Shown here in pieces: positions 209-10,714 of a stretch of 10,714 nt of DNA. This stretch comes from a virus. Both the position numbers and the translations under genes were made by a program. Within the stretch, counting starts at the first letter, position 1, and the number at the start of each line of letters is the position of its first letter. Where the stretch lies: UHGV virus genome UHGV-1748743; one strand, written 5' to 3'. Below the pieces are notes generated by a model. The model saw nothing but the letters and a program-made list of their open reading frames with translations, did no database searches and was not told where the DNA came from.

Positions 209-624
209 GTTTTGCCCTGAAACTGGCGCGTGAGATGGGGCGACCCGACTGGCGTGCCATGCTTGCCGGGATGTCATCCACGGAGTATGCCGACTGGCAC
301 CGCTTTTACAGTACCCATTATTTTCATGATGTTCTGCTGGATATGCACTTTTCCGGGCTGACGTACACCGTGCTCAGCCTGTTTTTCAGCGATCCGGATA
401 TGCATCCGCTGGATTTCAGTCTGCTGAACCGGCGCGAGGCTGACGAAGAGCCTGAAGATGATGTGCTGATGCAGAAAGCGGCAGGGCTTGCCGGAGGTGT
501 CCGCTTTGGCCCGGACGGGAATGAAGTTATCCCCGCTTCCCCGGATGTGGCGGACATGACGGAGGATGACGTAATGCTGATGACAGTATCAGAAGGGATC
601 GCAGGAGGAGTCCGGTATGGCTGA
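190..624 (+). CDS. T: T-frame segment of the G-T fusion tail assembly chaperone, expressed only by -1 frameshift from G
   Basis: Seen in sequence: -1 frame relative to G, open from the slippery site to TGA 622-624. There is no ATG or Shine-Dalgarno of its own (the track start at 190 is a GTG read as Val). The stop overlaps the H start (ATGGCTGA). The 435-nt length equals the lambda T segment as I recall it. The acidic tail EDDVLMQKAAGLAGGVRFG... is repeated near the C-terminus. Confidence 0.85.
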   Translation: MFDGELSFALKLAREMGRPDWRAMLAGMSSTEYADWHRFYSTHYFHDVLLDMHFSGLTYTVLSLFFSDPDMHPLDFSLLNRREADEEPEDDVLMQKAAGLAGGVRFGPDGNEVIPASPDVADMTEDDVMLMTVSEGIAGGVRYG

Positions 625-3178
625 ACCGGTAGGCGATCTGGTCGTTGATTTGAGTCTGGATGCGGCCAGATTTGACGAGCAGATGGCCAGAGTCAGGCGT
701 CATTTTTCCGGTACGGAAAGTGATGCGAAAAAAACAGCGGCAGTCGTTGAACAGTCGCTGAGCCGACAGGCGCTGGCTGCACAGAAAGCGGGGATTTCCG
801 TCGGGCAGTATAAAGCCGCCATGCGTATGCTGCCTGCACAGTTCACCGACGTGGCCACGCAGCTTGCAGGCGGGCAAAGTCCGTGGCTGATCCTGCTGCA
901 ACAGGGGGGGCAGGTGAAGGACTCCTTCGGCGGGATGATCCCCATGTTCAGGGGGCTTGCCGGTGCGATCACCCTGCCGATGGTGGGGGCCACCTCGCTG
1001 GCGGTGGCGACCGGTGCGCTGGCGTATGCCTGGTATCAGGGCAACTCAACCCTGTCCGATTTCAACAAAACGCTGGTCCTTTCCGGCAATCAGGCGGGTC
1101 TGACGGCAGATCGTATGCTGGTCCTGTCCAGAGCCGGGCAGGCGGCAGGGCTGACGTTTAACCAGACCAGCGAGTCACTCAGCGCACTGGTTAAGGCGGG
1201 GGTAAGCGGTGAGGCTCAGATTGCGTCCATCAGCCAGAGTGTGGCGCGTTTCTCCTCTGCATCCGGCGTGGAGGTGGACAAGGTCGCTGAAGCCTTCGGG
1301 AAGCTGACCACAGACCCGACGTCGGGGCTGACGGCGATGGCACGCCAGTTCCATAACGTGACGGCGGAGCAGATTGCGTATGTTGCTCAGTTGCAGCGTT
1401 CCGGCGATGAAGCCGGGGCATTGCAGGCGGCGAACGAGGCCGCAACGAAAGGGTTTGATGACCAGACCCGCCGCCTGAAAGAGAACATGGGCACGCTGGA
1501 GACCTGGGCAGACAGGACTGCGCGGGCATTCAAATCCATGTGGGATGCGGTGCTGGATATTGGTCGTCCTGATACCGCGCAGGAGATGCTGATTAAGGCA
1601 GAGGCTGCGTTTAAGAAAGCAGACGACATCTGGAATCTGCGCAAGGATGATTATTTTGTTAACGATGAAGCGCGGGCGCGTTACTGGGATGATCGTGAAA
1701 AGGCCCGTCTTGCGCTTGAAGCCGCCCGAAAGAAGGCTGAACAGCAGAGTCAACAGGACAAAAATGCGCAGCAGCAGAGCGATACCGAAGCGTCACGGCT
1801 GAAATATACCGAAGAGGCGCAGAAGGCTTACGAACGGCTGCAGACGCCGCTGGAGAAATATGCCGCCCGTCAGGAAGAACTGAATAAGGCCCTGAAAGAC
1901 GGAAAAATCCTGCAGGCAGATTACAACACGCTGATGGCGGCAGCGAAAAAGGACTATGAAACGACACTGAAAAAGCCGAAGCAGTCCGGCGTGAAGGTGT
2001 CTGCGGGCGATCGTCAGGAAGACAGTGCTCATGCTGCCCTGCTGACGCTTCAGGCTGAACTCCGGACGCTGGAGAAGCATGCCGGAGCAAATGAGAAAAT
2101 CAGCCAGCAGCGCCGGGATTTGTGGAAGGCGGAGAGTCAGTTCGCGGTACTGGAGGAGGCGGCGCAACGTCGCCAGCTGTCTGTACAGGAGAAATCCCTG
2201 CTGGCGCATAAAGATGAGACGCTGGAGTACAAACGCCAGCTGGCTGCACTTGGCGACAAGGTTACGTATCAGGAGCGCCTGAACGCGCTGGCGCAGCAGG
2301 CGGATAAATTCGCACAGCAGCAACGGGCAAAACGGGCCGCCATTGATGCGAAAAGCCGGGGGCTGACTGACCGGCAGGCAGAACGGGAAGCCACGGAACA
2401 GCGCCTGAAGGAACAGTATGGCGATAATCCGCTGGCGCTGAATAACGTCATGTCAGAGCAGAAAAAGACCTGGGCGGCTGAAGACCAGCTTCGCGGGAAC
2501 TGGATGGCAGGCCTGAAGTCCGGCTGGAGTGAGTGGGAAGAGAGCGCCACGGACAGTATGTCGCAGGTAAAAAGTGCAGCCACGCAGACCTTTGATGGTA
2601 TTGCACAGAATATGGCGGCGATGCTGACCGGCAGTGAGCAGAACTGGCGCAGCTTCACCCGTTCCGTGCTGTCCATGATGACAGAAATTCTGCTTAAGCA
2701 GGCAATGGTGGGGATTGTCGGGAGTATCGGCAGCGCCATTGGCGGGGCTGTTGGTGGCGGCGCATCCGCGTCAGGCGGTACAGCCATTCAGGCCGCTGCG
2801 GCGAAATTCCATTTTGCAACCGGAGGATTTACGGGAACCGGCGGCAAATATGAGCCAGCGGGGATTGTTCACCGTGGTGAATTTGTCTTCACGAAGGAGG
2901 CAACCAGCCGGATTGGCGTGGGGAATCTTTACCGGCTGATGCGCGGCTATGCCACCGGCGGTTATGTCGGTACACCGGGCAGCATGGCAGACAGCCGGTC
3001 GCAGGCGTCCGGGACGTTTGAGCAGAATAACCATGTGGTGATTAACAACGACGGCACGAACGGGCAGATAGGTCCGGCTGCTCTGAAGGCGGTGTATGAC
3101 ATGGCCCGCAAGGGTGCCCGTGATGAAATTCAGACACAGATGCGTGATGGTGGCCTGTTCTCCGGAGGTGGACGATGA
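617..3178 (+). CDS. H: Tail tape measure protein
   Basis: Seen in sequence: 853-codon ORF with GGAGGAG (604-610) 6 nt upstream of ATG 617. It has a long Q/K/E/A/R-rich predicted helical middle (about 1650-2500), a Gly-rich hydrophobic segment GSIGSAIGGAVGGGASASGG, and ends ...GGLFSGGGR. Same length as lambda gpH (recalled) and in the expected position after G/T. Confidence 0.97.
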   Translation: MAEPVGDLVVDLSLDAARFDEQMARVRRHFSGTESDAKKTAAVVEQSLSRQALAAQKAGISVGQYKAAMRMLPAQFTDVATQLAGGQSPWLILLQQGGQVKDSFGGMIPMFRGLAGAITLPMVGATSLAVATGALAYAWYQGNSTLSDFNKTLVLSGNQAGLTADRMLVLSRAGQAAGLTFNQTSESLSALVKAGVSGEAQIASISQSVARFSSASGVEVDKVAEAFGKLTTDPTSGLTAMARQFHNVTAEQIAYVAQLQRSGDEAGALQAANEAATKGFDDQTRRLKENMGTLETWADRTARAFKSMWDAVLDIGRPDTAQEMLIKAEAAFKKADDIWNLRKDDYFVNDEARARYWDDREKARLALEAARKKAEQQSQQDKNAQQQSDTEASRLKYTEEAQKAYERLQTPLEKYAARQEELNKALKDGKILQADYNTLMAAAKKDYETTLKKPKQSGVKVSAGDRQEDSAHAALLTLQAELRTLEKHAGANEKISQQRRDLWKAESQFAVLEEAAQRRQLSVQEKSLLAHKDETLEYKRQLAALGDKVTYQERLNALAQQADKFAQQQRAKRAAIDAKSRGLTDRQAEREATEQRLKEQYGDNPLALNNVMSEQKKTWAAEDQLRGNWMAGLKSGWSEWEESATDSMSQVKSAATQTFDGIAQNMAAMLTGSEQNWRSFTRSVLSMMTEILLKQAMVGIVGSIGSAIGGAVGGGASASGGTAIQAAAAKFHFATGGFTGTGGKYEPAGIVHRGEFVFTKEATSRIGVGNLYRLMRGYATGGYVGTPGSMADSRSQASGTFEQNNHVVINNDGTNGQIGPAALKAVYDMARKGARDEIQTQMRDGGLFSGGGR

Positions 3179-5549: not shown

Positions 5550-8500
5550 ATGGGTAAAGGCAGCAGTAAGGGGCATACCCCGCGCGAAGCGAAGGACAAC
5601 CTGAAGTCCACGCAGCTGCTGAGTGTGATCGATGCCATCAGCGAAGGGCCGGTTGAAGGTCCGGTGGATGGATTAAAAAGCGTGCTGCTGAACAGTACGC
5701 CGGTGCTGGACAGTGAGGGGAATACCAATATATCCGGCGTCACGGTGGTGTTCCGGGCCGGTGAGCAGGAGCAGTCACCGCCGGAGGGATTTGAATCCTC
5801 CGGCTCCGAGACGGTGCTGGGTACGGAAGTGAAATATGACACGCCGATCACCCGGACCATCACGTCGGCAAACATCGACCGTCTGCGCTTTACCTTCGGT
5901 GTACAGGCACTGGTGGAAACCACCTCAAAGGGAGACAGGAATCCGTCGGAAGTTCGCCTGCTGGTTCAGATACAGCGTAACGGTGGCTGGGTGACGGAAA
6001 AAGACATCACCATTAAGGGCAAAACCACCTCGCAGTATCTGGCCTCGGTGGTGGTGGATAACCTGCCGCCGCGCCCGTTTAATATCCGGATGCGCAGGAT
6101 GACGCCGGACAGCACCACAGACCAGCTGCTGAACAAAACGCTCTGGTCGTCATACACCGAAATCATCGATGTGAAACAGTGCTACCCGAACACGGCACTG
6201 GTTGGCGTGCAGGTGGACTCGGAGCAGTTCGGCAGCCAGCAGGTGAGCCGTAATTATCATCTTCGCGGGCGCATTCTGCAGGTGCCGTCGAACTATAACC
6301 CGCAGACGCGGCAATACAGCGGTATCTGGGACGGAACGTTAAAACCGGCATACAGCAACAACATGGCCTGGTGTCTGTGGGATATGCTGACCCATCCGCG
6401 CTACGGCATGGGGAAACGTCTTGGTGCGGCGGATGTGGACAAATGGGCGCTGTATGTCATCGGCCAGTACTGCGACCAGTCGGTGCCGGACGGCTTTGGC
6501 GGCACGGAGCCGCGCATTACCTGTAATGCGTACCTGACCACACAGCGCAAGGCGTGGGATGTGCTCAGTGATTTCTGCTCGGCGATGCGCTGTATGCCGG
6601 TATGGAACGGGCAGACGCTGACGTTCGTGCAGGACCGACCATCAGATAAGGTGTGGACCTATAACCGCAGTAATGTGGTGATGCCGGATGATGGCGCGCC
6701 GTTCCGCTACAGCTTCAGCGCCCTGAAGGACCGCCATAATGCCGTTGAGGTGAACTGGATTGACCCGGATAACGGCTGGGAGACGGCGACAGAGCTCGTG
6801 GAGGATACGCAGGCCATTGCCCGTTACGGCCGTAACGTCACGAAGATGGATGCCTTTGGCTGTACCAGCCGGGGGCAGGCACACCGCGCCGGGCTGTGGC
6901 TGATTAAAACGGAGCTGCTGGAAACGCAGACCGTGGACTTCAGCGTGGGTGCTGAAGGGCTTCGCCATGTACCGGGGGATGTCATTGAAATCTGCGATGA
7001 TGACTATGCCGGTATCAGCACCGGTGGTCGTGTGCTGGCGGTGAACAGCCAGACCCGGACGCTGACGCTCGACCGTGAAATCACGCTGCCATCCTCCGGT
7101 ACCACGCTGATAAGCCTGGTTGACGGAAGTGGCAATCCGGTCAGCGTGGAGGTTCAGTCCGTCACCGACGGCGTGAAGGTGAAAGTGAGCCGTGTTCCTG
7201 ACGGTGTTGCTGAATACAGCGTATGGGGGCTGAAGCTGCCGACGCTGCGCCAGCGCCTGTTCCGCTGCGTGAGTATCCGTGAGAACGATGACGGCACGTA
7301 TGCCATCACCGCCGTGCAGCATGTACCGGAAAAAGAGGCCATCGTGGATAACGGGGCGCACTTTGACGGCGACCAGAGCGGCACGGTGAATGGTGTCACG
7401 CCGCCCGCGGTGCAGCACCTGACCGCAGAAGTCACCGCAGACAGCGGGGAATATCAGGTGCTGGCGCGATGGGACACACCGAAGGTGGTGAAGGGGGTGA
7501 GCTTTATGCTTCGCCTGACCGTGGCAGCGGATGACGGCAGTGAGCGGCTGGTCAGCACAGCCCGGACGGCGGAAACCACATACCGCTTCACACAACTGGC
7601 GCTGGGGAACTACAGGCTGACAGTCCGGGCAGTAAATGCGTGGGGGCAGCAGGGGGATCCGGCGTCGGTATCGTTCCGGATTGCCGCACCGGCAGCGCCA
7701 TCGCGGATTGAGCTGACGCCGGGCTATTTTCAGATAACCGCAACGCCGCATCTTGCCGTTTATGATCCGACGGTACAGTTTGAGTTCTGGTTCTCGGAAA
7801 AGCGGATTGCGGATATCAGGCAGGTTGAAACCAGCGCGCGTTATCTTGGTACGGCGCTGTACTGGATAGCCGCCAGTATCAATATCAAACCGGGCCATGA
7901 TTATTATTTTTACATTCGCAGTGTGAACACCGTTGGCAAATCGGCATTTGTGGAGGCTGTTGGCCAGCCGAGTGATGATGCATCCGGCTATCTGGATTTT
8001 TTCAAAGGAGAGATAGGGAAAACCCATCTGGCTCAGGAGCTGTGGACGCAGATTGATAACGGTCAGCTTGCGCCGGACCTGGCTGAAATCAGGACGTCCA
8101 TTACGGATGTCAGCAATGAAATCACGCAGACCGTCAATAAGAAACTGGAAGACCAGAGTGCAGCGATCCAGCAGATACAGAAGGTTCAGGTTGATACAAA
8201 TAATAACCTGAACAGCATGTGGGCCGTGAAACTGCAGCAGATGCAGGACGGACGCCTTTATATTGCGGGTATCGGTGCCGGTATTGAGAATACGCCAGCA
8301 GGAATGCAGAGTCAGGTGCTGCTGGCGGCGGACAGGATTGCGATGATTAATCCTGCGAATGGCAATACAAAGCCGATGTTTGTTGGGCAGGGCGATCAGA
8401 TATTCATGAACGAAGTGTTCCTGAAATATCTGACGGCTCCCACCATTACCAGCGGTGGCAATCCCCCAACGTTTTCACTGACACCTGATGGTCGACTTTC

Positions 8501-9032
8501 TGCGAGAAATGCGGATATCAGCGGTAACGTGAATGCGAACTCCGGGACGCTCAATAATGTCACGATTAACCAGAACTGTCGGATTCTGGGAAAACTGTCA
8601 GCTAACCAGATTGAAGGTGATATTGTCAAAACGGTGGGAAAAGCCTTTCCGAGAAATGGCAGTTATGCCAGCGGTACAATAACGGTCACTGTGTACGATG
8701 ACCAGGCTTTTGACCGTCAGATAGTCGTCCCCCCCGTTCTGTTTCGCGGTGGTAAGCATGAAAACTTCAACAGCAACAACCAACAGTCATACTGGTATTC
8801 AACCTGTAAGCTGCAGGTGCTGAAGAACGGACAGGAAATCTTTCAGCAACCCGCGACGGATGTCAGCAGGGTATTTTCATCAGTCATTGATATGCCTGCC
8901 GGACACGGCCATGTCACCCTGACTTTCAATGTTTCTTCATATGGTGCAAATAACTGGACGCCAACGACCAGTATCAGCGACCTTCTTGTTGTCGTGATGA
9001 AGAAATCAACAGCCGGCATCAGTATCAGTTGA
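5550..9032 (+). CDS. J: Central tail fibre / host specificity protein J
   Basis: Seen in sequence: 1160-aa ORF with GGAG 9 nt upstream. The N-terminus is [21 protein letters not shown]..., the central region is FN3-like (about 7380-7750), and the C-terminal region carries the putative receptor-binding domain. Follows I as in lambda (gpJ recalled as 1132 aa). Confidence 0.97.
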
Positions 9033-9051
9033 ATTTTAAAACCCAAATTCG

Positions 9052-9079
9052 GGCACCAGAAATGGTGCCTTTTTTATTT
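9052..9079 (+). terminator. Rho-independent terminator downstream of J
   Basis: Seen in sequence: a perfect 7-bp stem GGCACCA (9052-9058) / TGGTGCC (9063-9069) with a GAAA loop, followed by TTTTTTATTT (9070-9079), 20 nt after the J stop. Confidence 0.6.
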
Positions 9080-9090
9080 GTGGAGTGAAT

Positions 9091-10714
9091 ATGGCAGTAC
9101 AGATTTCAGGTGTGCTGAAAGACGGTGCAGGAAAACCGATACAGAACTGCACCATTCAGCTCAAAGCAAAACGTAACAGCACCACAGTTGTGGTGAACAC
9201 GGTGGCCTCAGAAAATCCGGATGAAGCCGGACGTTACAGCATGGATGTTGAGCATGGTCAGTACAGCGTCACCCTGCTGGTTGAAGGTTTTCCGCCTTCA
9301 CATGCCGGGACCATTACCGTCTATGAAGGTTCCAGACCAGGTACGCTGAATGATTTTCTCGGTGCCATGACGGAGGATGATGTACGACCGGAGGCACTGC
9401 GCCGCTTTGAGCAGATGGTAGAAGAGGTGTCACGTAACGCCTCCGCGGTTGCACAGAATACGGCAGCCGCGAAAAAATCAGCCAGCGATGCCAGTGCATC
9501 AGCCAGCGAGGCGGCAACTCATGCAACCGATGCTGCAGCCTCATCACGTGCCGCCAGCACGTCAGCCGGACAGGCCGCGTCGTCGGCTCAGTCAGCGTCT
9601 TCCAGCGCAGGAACGGCATCGACAAAGGCCCGTGAAGCAGCAAAAAGTGCTGCTGCTGCAGAGTCATCAAAAAGCGCGGCAGCTACCAGTGCCGCTGCGG
9701 CGAAAACGTCAGAAACGAATGCCGCAGCATCACAAAAATCGGCAGCCACTTCTGCATCCACAGCGACCACGAAGGCGTCAGAAGCTGCCACCTCGGCACG
9801 GGGTGCGGCGGCCTCAAAAGAGGCAGCGAAATCTTCAGAAACGAATGCATCATCAAGTGCCAGTAGTGCAGCTTCCTCGGCAACGGCGGCAGGAAATTCC
9901 GCGAAGGCGGCAAAGACGTCTGAGACAAACGCCAGGTCTTCTGAAACGGCAGCGGGACAGAGCGCCTCAGCTGCGGCAGGTTCAAAAACAGCGGCTGCAT
10001 TATCTGCCAGTGCCGCGTCAACAAGTGCCGGGCAGGCCTCAGCCAGTGCCACCGCCGCCGGAAAATCGGCAGAAAGCGCCGCATCATCCGCTTCAACAGC
10101 CACAACGAAGGCTGGCAAAGCCACTGAGCAAGCCACTGCAGCAGCGAGGTCTGCTTCTGCAGCAAAAACCTCTGAAACAAATGCAAAGACTTCAGCAGAC
10201 AATGCTGCTTCCTCTAAGGCGGCAGCCGCATCGTCAGCCAGTTCAGCGGCGTCATCGGCATCATCTGCGTCTGCTTCAAAAGATGAGGCGACCAGACAGG
10301 CGTCAGCAGCAAAGGGCAGCGCCACGACGGCATCCACGAAGGCGACAGAGGCAGCTGGCAGTGCGACGGCGGCAGCTCAGAGCAAAAGTACGGCGGAATC
10401 CGCGGCAACGCGCGCCGAGACAGCGGCAAAACGGGCAGAGGATATTGCATCCGCCGTGGCGCTTGAGGATGCGAGCACGACGAAAAAGGGGATAGTACAG
10501 CTCAGCAGTGCGACCAACAGCACTTCCGAGTCACTGGCGGCAACGCCAAAAGCGGTTAAGGCGGTAATGGGTGAAACGAACAAGAAAGCGCCCTTAAATA
10601 GTCCTGCACTGACCGGAACGCCAACAACACCAACTGCGCGACAGGGAACGAATAATACCCAAATCGCAAGCACGGCTTATGTTATGGCTGCGATCGCTGC
10701 CCTCGTGGACTCGT
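9091..10714 (+). CDS. stf: Side tail fibre protein, N-terminal 541 codons (3' end lies beyond the window)
   Basis: Seen in sequence: ATG 9091 with GGAG at 9082-9085; the frame is open to the window end (I translated it by hand; it is missing from the track only because it has no stop in the window). The N-terminus MAVQISGVLKDGAGKPIQNCTIQLKAKRNSTTVVVNT... resembles lambda Stf (recalled). A long Ala/Ser/Thr-rich heptad shaft follows, then the motif KKGIVQLSSATNSTSESLAATPKAVKAVM at 10483-10569. Confidence 0.9.
   Translation, partial: MAVQISGVLKDGAGKPIQNCTIQLKAKRNSTTVVVNTVASENPDEAGRYSMDVEHGQYSVTLLVEGFPPSHAGTITVYEGSRPGTLNDFLGAMTEDDVRPEALRRFEQMVEEVSRNASAVAQNTAAAKKSASDASASASEAATHATDAAASSRAASTSAGQAASSAQSASSSAGTASTKAREAAKSAAAAESSKSAAATSAAAAKTSETNAAASQKSAATSASTATTKASEAATSARGAAASKEAAKSSETNASSSASSAASSATAAGNSAKAAKTSETNARSSETAAGQSASAAAGSKTAAALSASAASTSAGQASASATAAGKSAESAASSASTATTKAGKATEQATAAARSASAAKTSETNAKTSADNAASSKAAAASSASSAASSASSASASKDEATRQASAAKGSATTASTKATEAAGSATAAAQSKSTAESAATRAETAAKRAEDIASAVALEDASTTKKGIVQLSSATNSTSESLAATPKAVKAVMGETNKKAPLNSPALTGTPTTPTARQGTNNTQIASTAYVMAAIAALVDS
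9472..10458 (+). repeat. In-frame 21-nt (heptad) periodic repeat region encoding the Ala/Ser-rich fibre shaft within stf
   Basis: Seen in sequence: residues about 128-456 align in about 47 consecutive 7-residue rows with consensus x-[ST]-S-A-x-x-A (Ala nearly invariant at position 7, Ser at position 3). The motif K-[TS]-S-E-T-N-A starts at 9703, 9829, 9913 and 10165, with spacings of 126, 84 and 252 nt, all multiples of 21. Confidence 0.8.

Follow-up and report, generated by a model that had tools for sequence, protein, structure and literature searches.

The closest described systems to the one presented here are the side tail fibre (Stf) of bacteriophage lambda and EPclA/B, the collagen-like tail fibres of E. 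coli prophages. Lambda Stf was counted among the long coiled-coil proteins by Rose (2005), and Yu (2025), using cryo-EM, cryo-ET and AlphaFold3, defined its residues 102–393 as a trimeric proximal coiled coil, the collar domain of the fibre serving to anchor it to the tail tube/tip junction (PMC12617516). A folded prediction conflicts with the cryo-ET of lambda, in which this proximal domain is extended (PMC12617516). Ghosh (2012) reported high coiled-coil prediction scores for the region homologous to the rod discussed below, and described a segment, PCoil, that has an Ala/Ser heptad and lengths differing by multiples of seven (PMC3368898). PCoil is without the usual large hydrophobic core, yet was found experimentally to be a trimer: CD showed a PfN–PCoil fragment without the distal domains to be α-helical, SEC-MALLS gave mainly a trimer, and in EM the fragment was a rod of 16 nm, a length consistent with an extended coil; it unfolded cooperatively at ~50 °C (PMC3368898). 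The PDB has only residues 1–94 of lambda Stf, and no atomic experimental structure of the Ala/Ser rod in the Stf family. The rod itself is already known, having been described for lambda and for E. coli relatives, and the example presented here is 15 heptads longer than that of lambda.

The window, by which we mean the whole stretch of 10,714 nt analysed from the virus genome UHGV-1748743, carries upstream of the fibre gene a tail module of lambdoid type in the order H (853 aa)–M–L–K–I–J (1160 aa). The stf (side tail fibre) gene starts on the + strand with an ATG at 9091, preceded by GGAG, and its first 541 codons fall within the window (9091..10714), the ORF being open at the window end. It comes after J, the central fibre gene, an order also annotated in E. 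coli prophages and in lambda, but unlike in lambda no lom gene is present between the two; in two close relatives, L096 and L097, a Caudo_TAP gene, the kind looked for as tail fibre assembly gene (Tfa), directly follows stf. At the nucleotide level stf is 90–91% identical to lambdoid-phage genes annotated as side tail fiber, and PHROG assigns the product to tail fiber families. Residues 1–134 match PF08400 (prophage tail fibre N-terminal, E=1.8e-70), and residues 1–94 (9091..9372, +) form an N-terminal collar domain that matches PDB 9e7m/9mgh, the lambda Stf residues 1–94 (E=1.1e-48). Just past the heptads the neck motif KKGIVQLSSATNSTSE begins at aa 465 (10483..10530, +); the motif is a conserved one, shared by lambda Stf and by phage Mu fibre protein S, of which residues 91–151 (PDB 5yvq/9ki1) align with aa 441–500 of the protein (E=1e-6).

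The PF08400 collar, the position after J and a collinear Ala/Ser rod ending in the GIVQLSSATNSTSE neck identify the gene as a lambda-type stf. It shares with lambda Stf the orthologous position, the same collar, the heptad register and the neck motif, and apart from one gap the two proteins align collinearly with high similarity. In the EPclA/B fibres, too, this PfN domain at the N-terminus leads into a rod of Ala/Ser heptads, and L089, itself a protein of the collagen-bearing EPclA type, has its N-terminus and heptad phase in common with stf here. Unlike the present rod, those of the EPcl fibres are much shorter (~110 aa, 16 nm), contain more Glu, and are followed by a collagen triple helix in place of the GIVQLSSAT neck of Stf (PMC3368898). 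Thousands of prophages of E. coli and Shigella carry near-identical stf alleles, and the database has 6469 homologues.

The proximal rod consists of 49 uninterrupted Ala/Ser heptads at aa 115–457 (9433..10461, +), recognised from the translation written in rows of seven, from periodicity and from AlphaFold2 (AF2) models. The first-pass annotation, made from the sequence alone, had described about 47 uninterrupted heptads at 9472–10458; this interval of 987 nt corresponds to 47 whole heptads, in register with the full run, and no indel breaks the phase at any point across the 49. The 7-residue periodicity it had reported over about 330 residues extends over 343, the Ala indicator having a Fourier power of 9.8 for a period of 3.5 and of 4.4 for a period of 7, against a maximum of 1.8 in 2000 shuffles. 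Self-identity of the rod protein is 0.39–0.47 at every multiple of 7 (z 6.5–9.7), compared with z ≤1.3 at other lags. A higher-order repeat or recent internal duplication is not supported, self-identity being flat over the multiples of 7 and the paralogue of the extra block described below being weak.

The composition of the 49 heptads, position by position, matches the consensus x-[ST]-S-A-x-x-A that had been proposed. Position 1 is most often Thr (15) or Ser (12), position 2 is Ser in 37, position 3 is Ala in 35 with six Lys and five Glu, position 6 is Ala in 47 and Val in the other two, and position 7 is mostly Ala (21), Ser (9) or Lys (7). Ala and Ser together make up 63% of the rod, large hydrophobics are almost absent, and none of the 343 residues is Pro, aromatic, Cys or Met. 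The recurring K-T-S-E-T-N-A units pointed out at first pass are present as K[TS]SETNA four times, at aa 205, 247, 275 and 359. Ordinary hydrophobic residues are confined to the ends, where they follow the Ala register: L103, F106, V110, V113 and V120 at the start, and I452 and V456 at the finish. The first four of these lie in two heptads in the register of the rod at aa 101–114 (9391..9432, +), which are probably the start of the coiled coil; the AF2 helix begins at residue 101, and the lambda coiled coil at residue 102 (PMC12617516).

Large Leu, Ile or Val residues at a and d are not found along the rod, whose core is Ala/Ser, with L/F/V/I only in the end heptads. The Ala counts at positions 6 and 3 give the pattern of an alanine zipper, with Ala at consecutive a/d layers, at the sequence level. 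An attempt to assign a and d from hydrophobic residues in the relatives was abandoned, as there is some enrichment at each of positions 6, 1, 3 and 2 and no register is singled out. With Lys or Glu at position 3 in 11 heptads and no canonical Leu/Ile/Val core, the register as read from the sequence may be either an a/d pairing or a three-position stripe of small residues.

Small-residue cores are known from coils outside phage fibres. The E. coli lipoprotein Lpp-56 is a parallel trimer of 56 residues with runs of Ala at core positions and forms a thin, tightly packed coil, its core layers being a mixture of Ala, Leu, Val, Ile and Met; unlike it, the rod here has Ala/Ser on its presumed inward face through all 49 heptads, and the two have no homology. 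The coiled-coil silks of bees and hornets likewise consist of long heptad coils rich in Ala and Ser, with an Ala-rich core, but they are four-stranded, built from four different proteins and eukaryotic, and show no homology to the rod.

Sequence and structure searches found little for the rod alone. No Pfam family covers it, and a PDB search with the rod returned only T7 gp17 (E=0.1) and an RNA polymerase CTD (E=6.4, compositional), and no solved homologue of the rod. A hit to 9cod, an SGNH hydrolase domain protein, at aa 176–298 (E=1.3e-4) was obtained with the full protein and discarded, having been lost in the rod-only PDB search. T7 gp17 resembles the present protein in having an N-terminal tail-binding domain followed by a coiled coil (residues ~150–270) with similar SAGNSA..AA.SE.NA motifs, but that coil is the shorter of the two and its core is built of normal hydrophobic residues, and the match itself (aa 215–308 to gp17 172–265, E=0.1–0.2) is not significant and may be compositional.

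These features and the homology make it very probable that the heptad region is the proximal rod in a side tail fibre of lambda type, a long, thin, three-stranded α-helical coiled-coil stalk. The periodicity, the unbroken register, the helix prediction and the homology are observed directly in this protein, as are the length classes and deletion junctions described below in its relatives; its trimeric state and extended form would follow by analogy from the literature on homologues. Beyond this, the details of parallel packing, nucleation by the end heptads and any consequence of the added length for function are what we infer. In such a rod the inward stripe of the coil would consist almost entirely of small residues, namely the Ala of positions 3 and 6 and the Ser of position 2, and the ordinary hydrophobics of the first and last heptads would probably serve to nucleate the trimer and to cap it. 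The whole rod would then act as a thin spacer that keeps the hinge, the distal shaft and the receptor-binding tip off the tail.

The alternative that survives best is a chain folded back on itself, giving an antiparallel multi-helix bundle per chain and a shorter, thicker stalk in place of the extended parallel trimer. An Ala recurring every seven residues is typical of helices paired tightly in antiparallel fashion (the 'Alacoil'), and the AF2 model of the full-length monomer does break the helix, which runs over residues 101–243, 254–389 and 399–465, although this model is of low confidence (pLDDT 55, pTM 0.22). The two breaks (244–253 and 390–398) contain neither Pro nor Gly, and when aa 225–415 (191 aa) are modelled alone a single continuous helix with a pLDDT of 93 passes straight through both, so that we consider them fold-back artefacts of the full model. 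The cryo-ET of lambda, with its extended proximal domain (PMC12617516), and the EM length of PCoil (PMC3368898) also argue against folding back, which we judge very unlikely.

In a second alternative the region would be an Ala/Ser/Thr stretch of low complexity serving as a flexible linker, or would form a non-oligomerising single stable helix, with trimerisation left to the distal domains. The high Ala and Ser content, the near absence of large hydrophobics and the lack of a Pfam model would suit such a region. The strict 3.5/7 periodicity over 343 residues would be unexpected for a disordered linker, single stable helices are rich in Glu, Lys and Arg, as this rod is not, and the PfN–PCoil fragment is mainly trimeric and melts cooperatively even without distal domains (PMC3368898), all of which makes this reading extremely improbable. 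The chance that the rod is a β-structured fibre is negligible. Many phage fibre shafts are β-structured, which would favour a triple β-helix or β-spiral. That reading is already contradicted by helix over the whole region with no strand assigned to aa 101–465 in either AF2 model, by a period of 3.5 and not 2 (period-2 power in the rod is at background) and by the α-helical CD of the homologue (PMC3368898). The proposal of a helical coiled coil in preference to a β fibre is thus supported by the AF2 helix, the absence of Pro, the in-register hydrophobics at the ends and the published homologues (PMC12617516, PMC3368898).

The length of the rod is best seen against lambda. In a pairwise alignment with lambda orf-401 the motif KKGIVQLSSATNSTSE starts at aa 465 here and at 360 in lambda, close to the displacement of about 100 residues that had been given at first pass; it lies 105 residues later because of a single gap of 105 aa, or exactly 15 heptads. 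The block without a lambda counterpart was placed at aa 304–408 (10000..10314, +), a placement left ambiguous by the similarity of its two flanks, and its closest in-phase internal paralogue, aa 192–296, shares 53% amino-acid identity with it against an in-phase background of 43%. The rod thus counts 49 heptads compared with 34 in lambda, and with the textbook coiled-coil rise of 0.148 nm per residue an expected length of ~51 nm compared with ~35 nm, the extra block contributing ~15.5 nm.

Rod length and phase were compared in 205 relatives. In 144 of them the rod is exactly as long as here, and overall the rods, which range from about 9 to about 58 heptads, form discrete size classes with a common phase, varying mostly by whole heptads, a single phase being kept across the rod in ~190/205. 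This agrees, as does the difference of exactly 15 heptads from lambda, with the earlier suggestion that shaft length is set by repeat copy number. Among 13 distinct indel events six are multiples of 7, where 1/7 would be expected by chance (p=0.006). The other seven are out of phase. Unless the copies that carry them are defective, these show that the heptad phase, intact in the present rod, is no absolute requirement, and the bias towards in-phase indels could have its source as much in the mechanism of recombination as in selection.

In the DNA itself a 21-nt phase does exist, but it is weak. Scored against codon shuffles, the 11 top lags are without exception multiples of 21 (z 2.5–5.7), in keeping with the phase noted at first pass, but identity at lag 21 is just ~0.45 against a background of 0.40. 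Tandem Repeats Finder (TRF), run on 9000–10714, found only two trivial short repeats, and no array of 21-, 42- or 126-nt units, the sizes that the first-pass annotation had proposed to look for. Given this low lag identity and the lack of a TRF array, the phase reflects amino-acid constraints and not recent DNA repeats. The high-identity head-to-tail units of a slippage-prone tandem locus are likewise not found by TRF. What is present is a dispersed 33-nt repeat on the + strand in four copies, encoding AAKTSETNAAA (9697..9729), AAKSSETNASS (9823..9855), AAKTSETNARS (9907..9939) and AAKTSETNAKT (10159..10191), and a sole adjacent 21-nt duplicate at 9477..9512 (+), in which ATCAGCCAGCGAKGC occurs twice (2 × 15 nt spaced by 21).

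The end-points of deletions in relatives coincide with these repeats. Variants of −42 and −70 aa have DNA junctions inside KTSETNA-coding copies, both with copy 1 as their left end-point and with copies 2 and 3, respectively, as their right end-points. In a −112 aa class the gap was located from the protein alignment alone; it agrees with the distance between two further such copies, with copy 2 at its left and copy 4 at its right, and a −7 aa variant (aa 130–136) in L073 and a Shigella sonnei group coincides with the adjacent duplicate. The idea that the repeats are substrates for slippage and recombination therefore holds in that the 42-, 70- and 112-aa deletions fit the spacings of KTSETNA copies and the −7 aa variant falls at the 21-nt duplicate, but not as a slippage hot spot, there being no high-identity array. 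Length would instead shift by in-frame, in-phase recombination between the dispersed KTSETNA-coding repeats and similar heptad blocks.

Long antisense ORFs overlie the rod, and lambda has an annotated antisense gene, orf206b, at the equivalent place; such ORFs would be expected here because GCN and TCN codons dominate and stops on the opposite strand are rare. With the prominence of lags at multiples of 21, these ORFs could be taken to mean that the periodicity belongs to the DNA, as a hypervariable 21-nt array switching length by slippage or as an opposite-strand gene, a reading that is hardly credible given the low lag-21 identity, the lack of a TRF array, the exact rod length shared by most relatives and the codon usage that would account for the antisense ORFs.

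The finding matters little beyond correct annotation, to which it adds that the antisense ORFs across the rod should not be annotated as genes. It is conceivable, if rather unlikely, that rod length is an evolvable ruler, in which in-phase recombination between KTSETNA repeats would supply discrete lengths and selection would fit them to the depth of O-antigen or capsule, and that the all-Ala/Ser inward face might represent a distinct class of trimeric packing with three small residues buried per heptad. The packing of the Ala/Ser core is a small structural question. The rod is modular in whole heptads, and fibre length can therefore probably be engineered by whole-heptad changes at the KTSETNA repeats.

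A lambdoid tail module lies on the + strand of the window and consists of a tape measure gene (617–3178, 853 aa), M-, L-, K- and I-sized ORFs, a J homologue (5550–9032, 1160 aa; the lambda J coordinates 15505–18903 imply 1132 aa) and finally stf, which starts with the ATG at 9091 and is still open at the window end (10714) after 541 codons. The J–stf gap is filled by lom in lambda, whereas here lom is absent from 9033–9090 and a terminator-like hairpin (stem–loop 9051–9070 followed by the T run TTTTTTATTT) leads into stf; an Ail/Lom gene is found upstream of stf in a close relative (L097). Taken whole, the window shares 98.3% identity with an E. coli prophage, and over 3000 complete E. coli genomes contain 80% of it or more. 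The last gene of the matching prophage is annotated as 'prophage tail fiber N-terminal domain-containing protein', and the same gene is named side tail fiber protein in phage records. Pfam assigns PF08400 alone to the product (aa 1–134, E=1.8e-70), PHROGs places it in tail fiber families, and aa 1–94 align with the collar domain whose structure is known for lambda Stf (PDB 9e7m/9mgh, E=1e-48).

Laid out in rows of seven, residues 115–457 (nt 9433–10461) form 49 heptads with no indels. The first-pass annotation had described about 47 heptads forming the Stf shaft at 9472–10458, which proves to be exactly 47 of the 49 in the identical register. Counted in that register, position 6 is Ala in 47 heptads and Val in two, position 3 is Ala in 35 (with Lys in six and Glu in five, located in KTSETNA and SK heptads), position 2 is Ser in 37 and position 1 is Thr or Ser in 27. 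Ala makes up 39% and Ser 24% of the rod, which has four occurrences of K[TS]SETNA and contains no Pro, aromatic residues, Cys or Met. The regularity noted at first sight is confirmed by this unbroken register, by the Fourier spectrum of the Ala positions (power 9.8 at period 3.5, 4.4 at period 7; maximum 1.8 in 2000 shuffles) and by protein self-identity, which is 0.39–0.47 at all multiples of seven (z 6.5–9.7; z≤1.3 at other lags). Periods 3.6, 3.67 and 11 are at background level, and the repeat is therefore a true heptad and not a hendecad.

The same periodicity had been reported as a 21-nt phase in the DNA, which is real but weak: against codon shuffles the 11 top lags are all multiples of 21, but identity at these lags is only about 0.45 vs 0.40 and Tandem Repeats Finder detects no 21-nt array. 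The periodicity therefore lies in the protein and not in recent DNA repeats, and a DNA-level feature or antisense gene as its source is not supported. Long ORFs do cover the rod on the − strand (249 aa, 9588–10337; 167 aa, 9683–10186) and in another + frame (348 aa, 9449–10495), and the lambda record has an antisense 'orf206b' (20147–20767) annotated in the corresponding position; all of these look more like side effects of a periodic, GCN/TCN-rich coding sequence than like genes.

Positions 2, 6 and 3 are adjacent when the heptad is drawn as a helical wheel, so that Ser, Ala and Ala would make up one continuous small-residue stripe along one helix face, as we read the composition of the heptad positions. 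Ordinary hydrophobics appear in the same register in the two heptads before the rod and in its last heptad, at position 3 (L103, V110), position 6 (F106, V113, V120, V456) and position 2 (M109, I452), as would be expected of a coiled coil in which the stripe faces inwards and normal core residues serve for nucleation and capping. Positions 3 and 6 could correspond to a and d with Ser at g, or position 6 could point towards the axis, flanked by positions 2 and 3; a PDB search returned no atomic experimental structure covering any Ala/Ser rod of this family.

Both the observation and its interpretation are already in the literature, given three earlier studies of related fibres. Yu et al. 2025 (PMC12617516), using cryo-EM, cryo-ET and AlphaFold3 on Ur-lambda, describe each side fibre as an Stf trimer, with a collar (1–91), linker (92–101), proximal coiled coil (102–393) and hinge (394–422) followed by the distal domain. 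The prophage fibre proteins examined by Ghosh et al. 2012 (PMC3368898) share the N-terminal domain; their PCoil is Ala/Ser-rich, almost without Leu or Ile, follows a loose Ala-X-X-Ala/Ser-X-X-Ser heptad and varies in length by multiples of seven. CD showed the PfN-PCoil fragment to be alpha-helical, SEC-MALLS gave mainly trimers, and in EM it appeared as a rod of 16 nm. Rose et al. 2005 (PMC1322226) had also listed the side tail fibre of lambda among long prokaryotic coiled-coil proteins. One of our fetched loci (L089) encodes a collagen-bearing protein of the Ghosh type, with 92% identity in its N-terminal domain and the same heptad phase. Weak similarity links window aa 215–308 (nt 9733–10014) to residues 172–265 in the coiled coil of T7 tail fibre gp17 (E=0.1–0.2), with common SAGNSA..AA.SE.NA motifs, and PDB 9cod, an SGNH hydrolase domain protein, is matched with the full-length query only (E=1.3e-4); either could reflect a remote relationship or composition. 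A disordered linker or a single stable helix does not fit the rod, being at odds with its strict periodicity and composition and with the homologous fragment, which is mainly trimeric and melts cooperatively near 50 °C (PMC3368898).

An AlphaFold2 model of the 541 residues with 19 homologues gave helices at 101–243, 254–389 and 399–465 at low confidence (pLDDT 55, pTM 0.22). Since neither break contains Pro or Gly, aa 225–415 were modelled alone, yielding a single uninterrupted helix through both break points (mean pLDDT 93). The breaks are thus artefacts, produced when one chain of an oligomer is modelled by itself and folds back. A folded-back antiparallel bundle, suggested only by single-chain or full-length predictions, is contradicted by this sub-segment and by tomograms of lambda, which also conflict with the AlphaFold3 fold-back of full-length lambda Stf (PMC12617516). 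A beta fibre is excluded by structure prediction, the periodicity and the CD of the homologue. With helix predicted and the phase unbroken, neither of the outcomes that the first-pass annotation had named as refuting (a lack of helical propensity, a phase disrupted by indels) is seen, and the proposed coiled-coil rod is supported by the models, the periodicity and the published work on homologues.

Lambda orf-401 represents the N-terminal portion of stf, a gene that is frameshifted in lambda PaPa. The window protein aligns with it collinearly and with high similarity, interrupted by one gap of 105 residues or exactly 15 heptads, so that window aa 304–408 have no lambda counterpart. The neck motif KKGIVQLSSATNSTSE starts at aa 465 vs 360 in lambda; the earlier statement that it lies about 100 residues later than in lambda is right, and the cause is heptad number. 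At the textbook rise of 0.148 nm per residue, the extra block lengthens a rod of about 35 nm by about 15.5 nm. Its closest in-phase paralogue (aa 192–296) is weak, at 53% identity vs an in-phase background of 43%, and 51% for DNA; if duplicated, the block would have arisen long ago.

Length variation was followed in 120 database proteins (a cutoff of E≤1e-20 admits 6469) and 85 usable loci on viral or genome contigs, a sample biased towards close relatives, with heptad phase traced by a position-specific score and Viterbi pass. A single phase spans the entire rod in about 190 of these 205 relatives. The rod ends as in the window (aa 457/458) in 144 of them, making the 49-heptad form the modal allele in the sample and the lambda 34-heptad form a minority; other ends fall at aa 327, 344/346, 353 (lambda type), 230, 180 and so on, and the longest rod reaches aa 519. 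Relative to the window there are 13 distinct indel events, six in phase (−224, −112, −105, −70, −42 and −7 aa) and seven out of phase (−220, −31, −5, −4, −3, −1 and +61 aa), an in-phase excess over the one in seven expected (p=0.006). Each out-of-phase allele comes from one database protein or one fetched locus, except the −1 deletion (KSAAAAE to KSAAAE, window aa 185–191, nt 9643–9663), which is common to nine Shigella sonnei homologues (P0009–P0017) that also carry the in-phase −7 aa deletion, and which shifts the phase for the remaining 270 residues. In heptad arithmetic three out-of-phase alleles are +4 and one is +3, which correspond to the classical stutter and stammer, both tolerated in coiled coils. 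The S. sonnei deletion amounts to a six-residue insertion. Such insertions are reported to create beta-layers in trimeric coiled coils (PMC4786415).

The repeats had also been proposed as substrates for slippage and recombination. A repeat search identified four dispersed copies of a 33-nt element that codes for AAK[TS]SETNA (at 9697, 9823, 9907 and 10159), and every distance between them is a multiple of 21; spacings of 126, 210 and 336 nt equal deletions of 42, 70 and 112 aa. The DNA junctions of the −42 (L097) and −70 (L096) alleles lie inside these copies, the −126-nt junction within a 14-nt exact match (TCAGAAACGAATGC), and the gap of the −112 class (eight loci) falls between the copies at 9823 and 10159. 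The −7 allele (aa 130–136) coincides with the only adjacent 21-nt duplicate (9477–9512). Recombination is thus supported for the dispersed copies, but taken as a whole the rod is no tandem array prone to slippage. Since these repeats already keep the heptad phase, mechanism as well as selection may underlie the in-phase indel excess.

Two oddities of the databases were met among the relatives. Metagenome-assembled contigs assigned to Collinsella or Clostridiales (L087, L089, L094) carry this E. coli prophage fibre N-terminus at 92–100% identity, probably through binning contamination, and seven Stf homologues (P0045, P0057, P0062, P0069, P0080, P0085, P0092) are named 'short-chain fatty acid transporter, partial' at NCBI, which looks like a misannotation.

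In L085, L086, L088, L019 and similar loci the collar and heptad rod are joined to quite different distal parts: some have a collagen triple helix, some a module of about 900 aa that lacks the GIVQL neck, and others shorter C-termini that are unrelated. The distal junction is always at the heptad end, which makes this end a module boundary. With the observation confirmed and its interpretation supported, the rod is a feature of lambda-type side tail fibres that is very common and has been described before.
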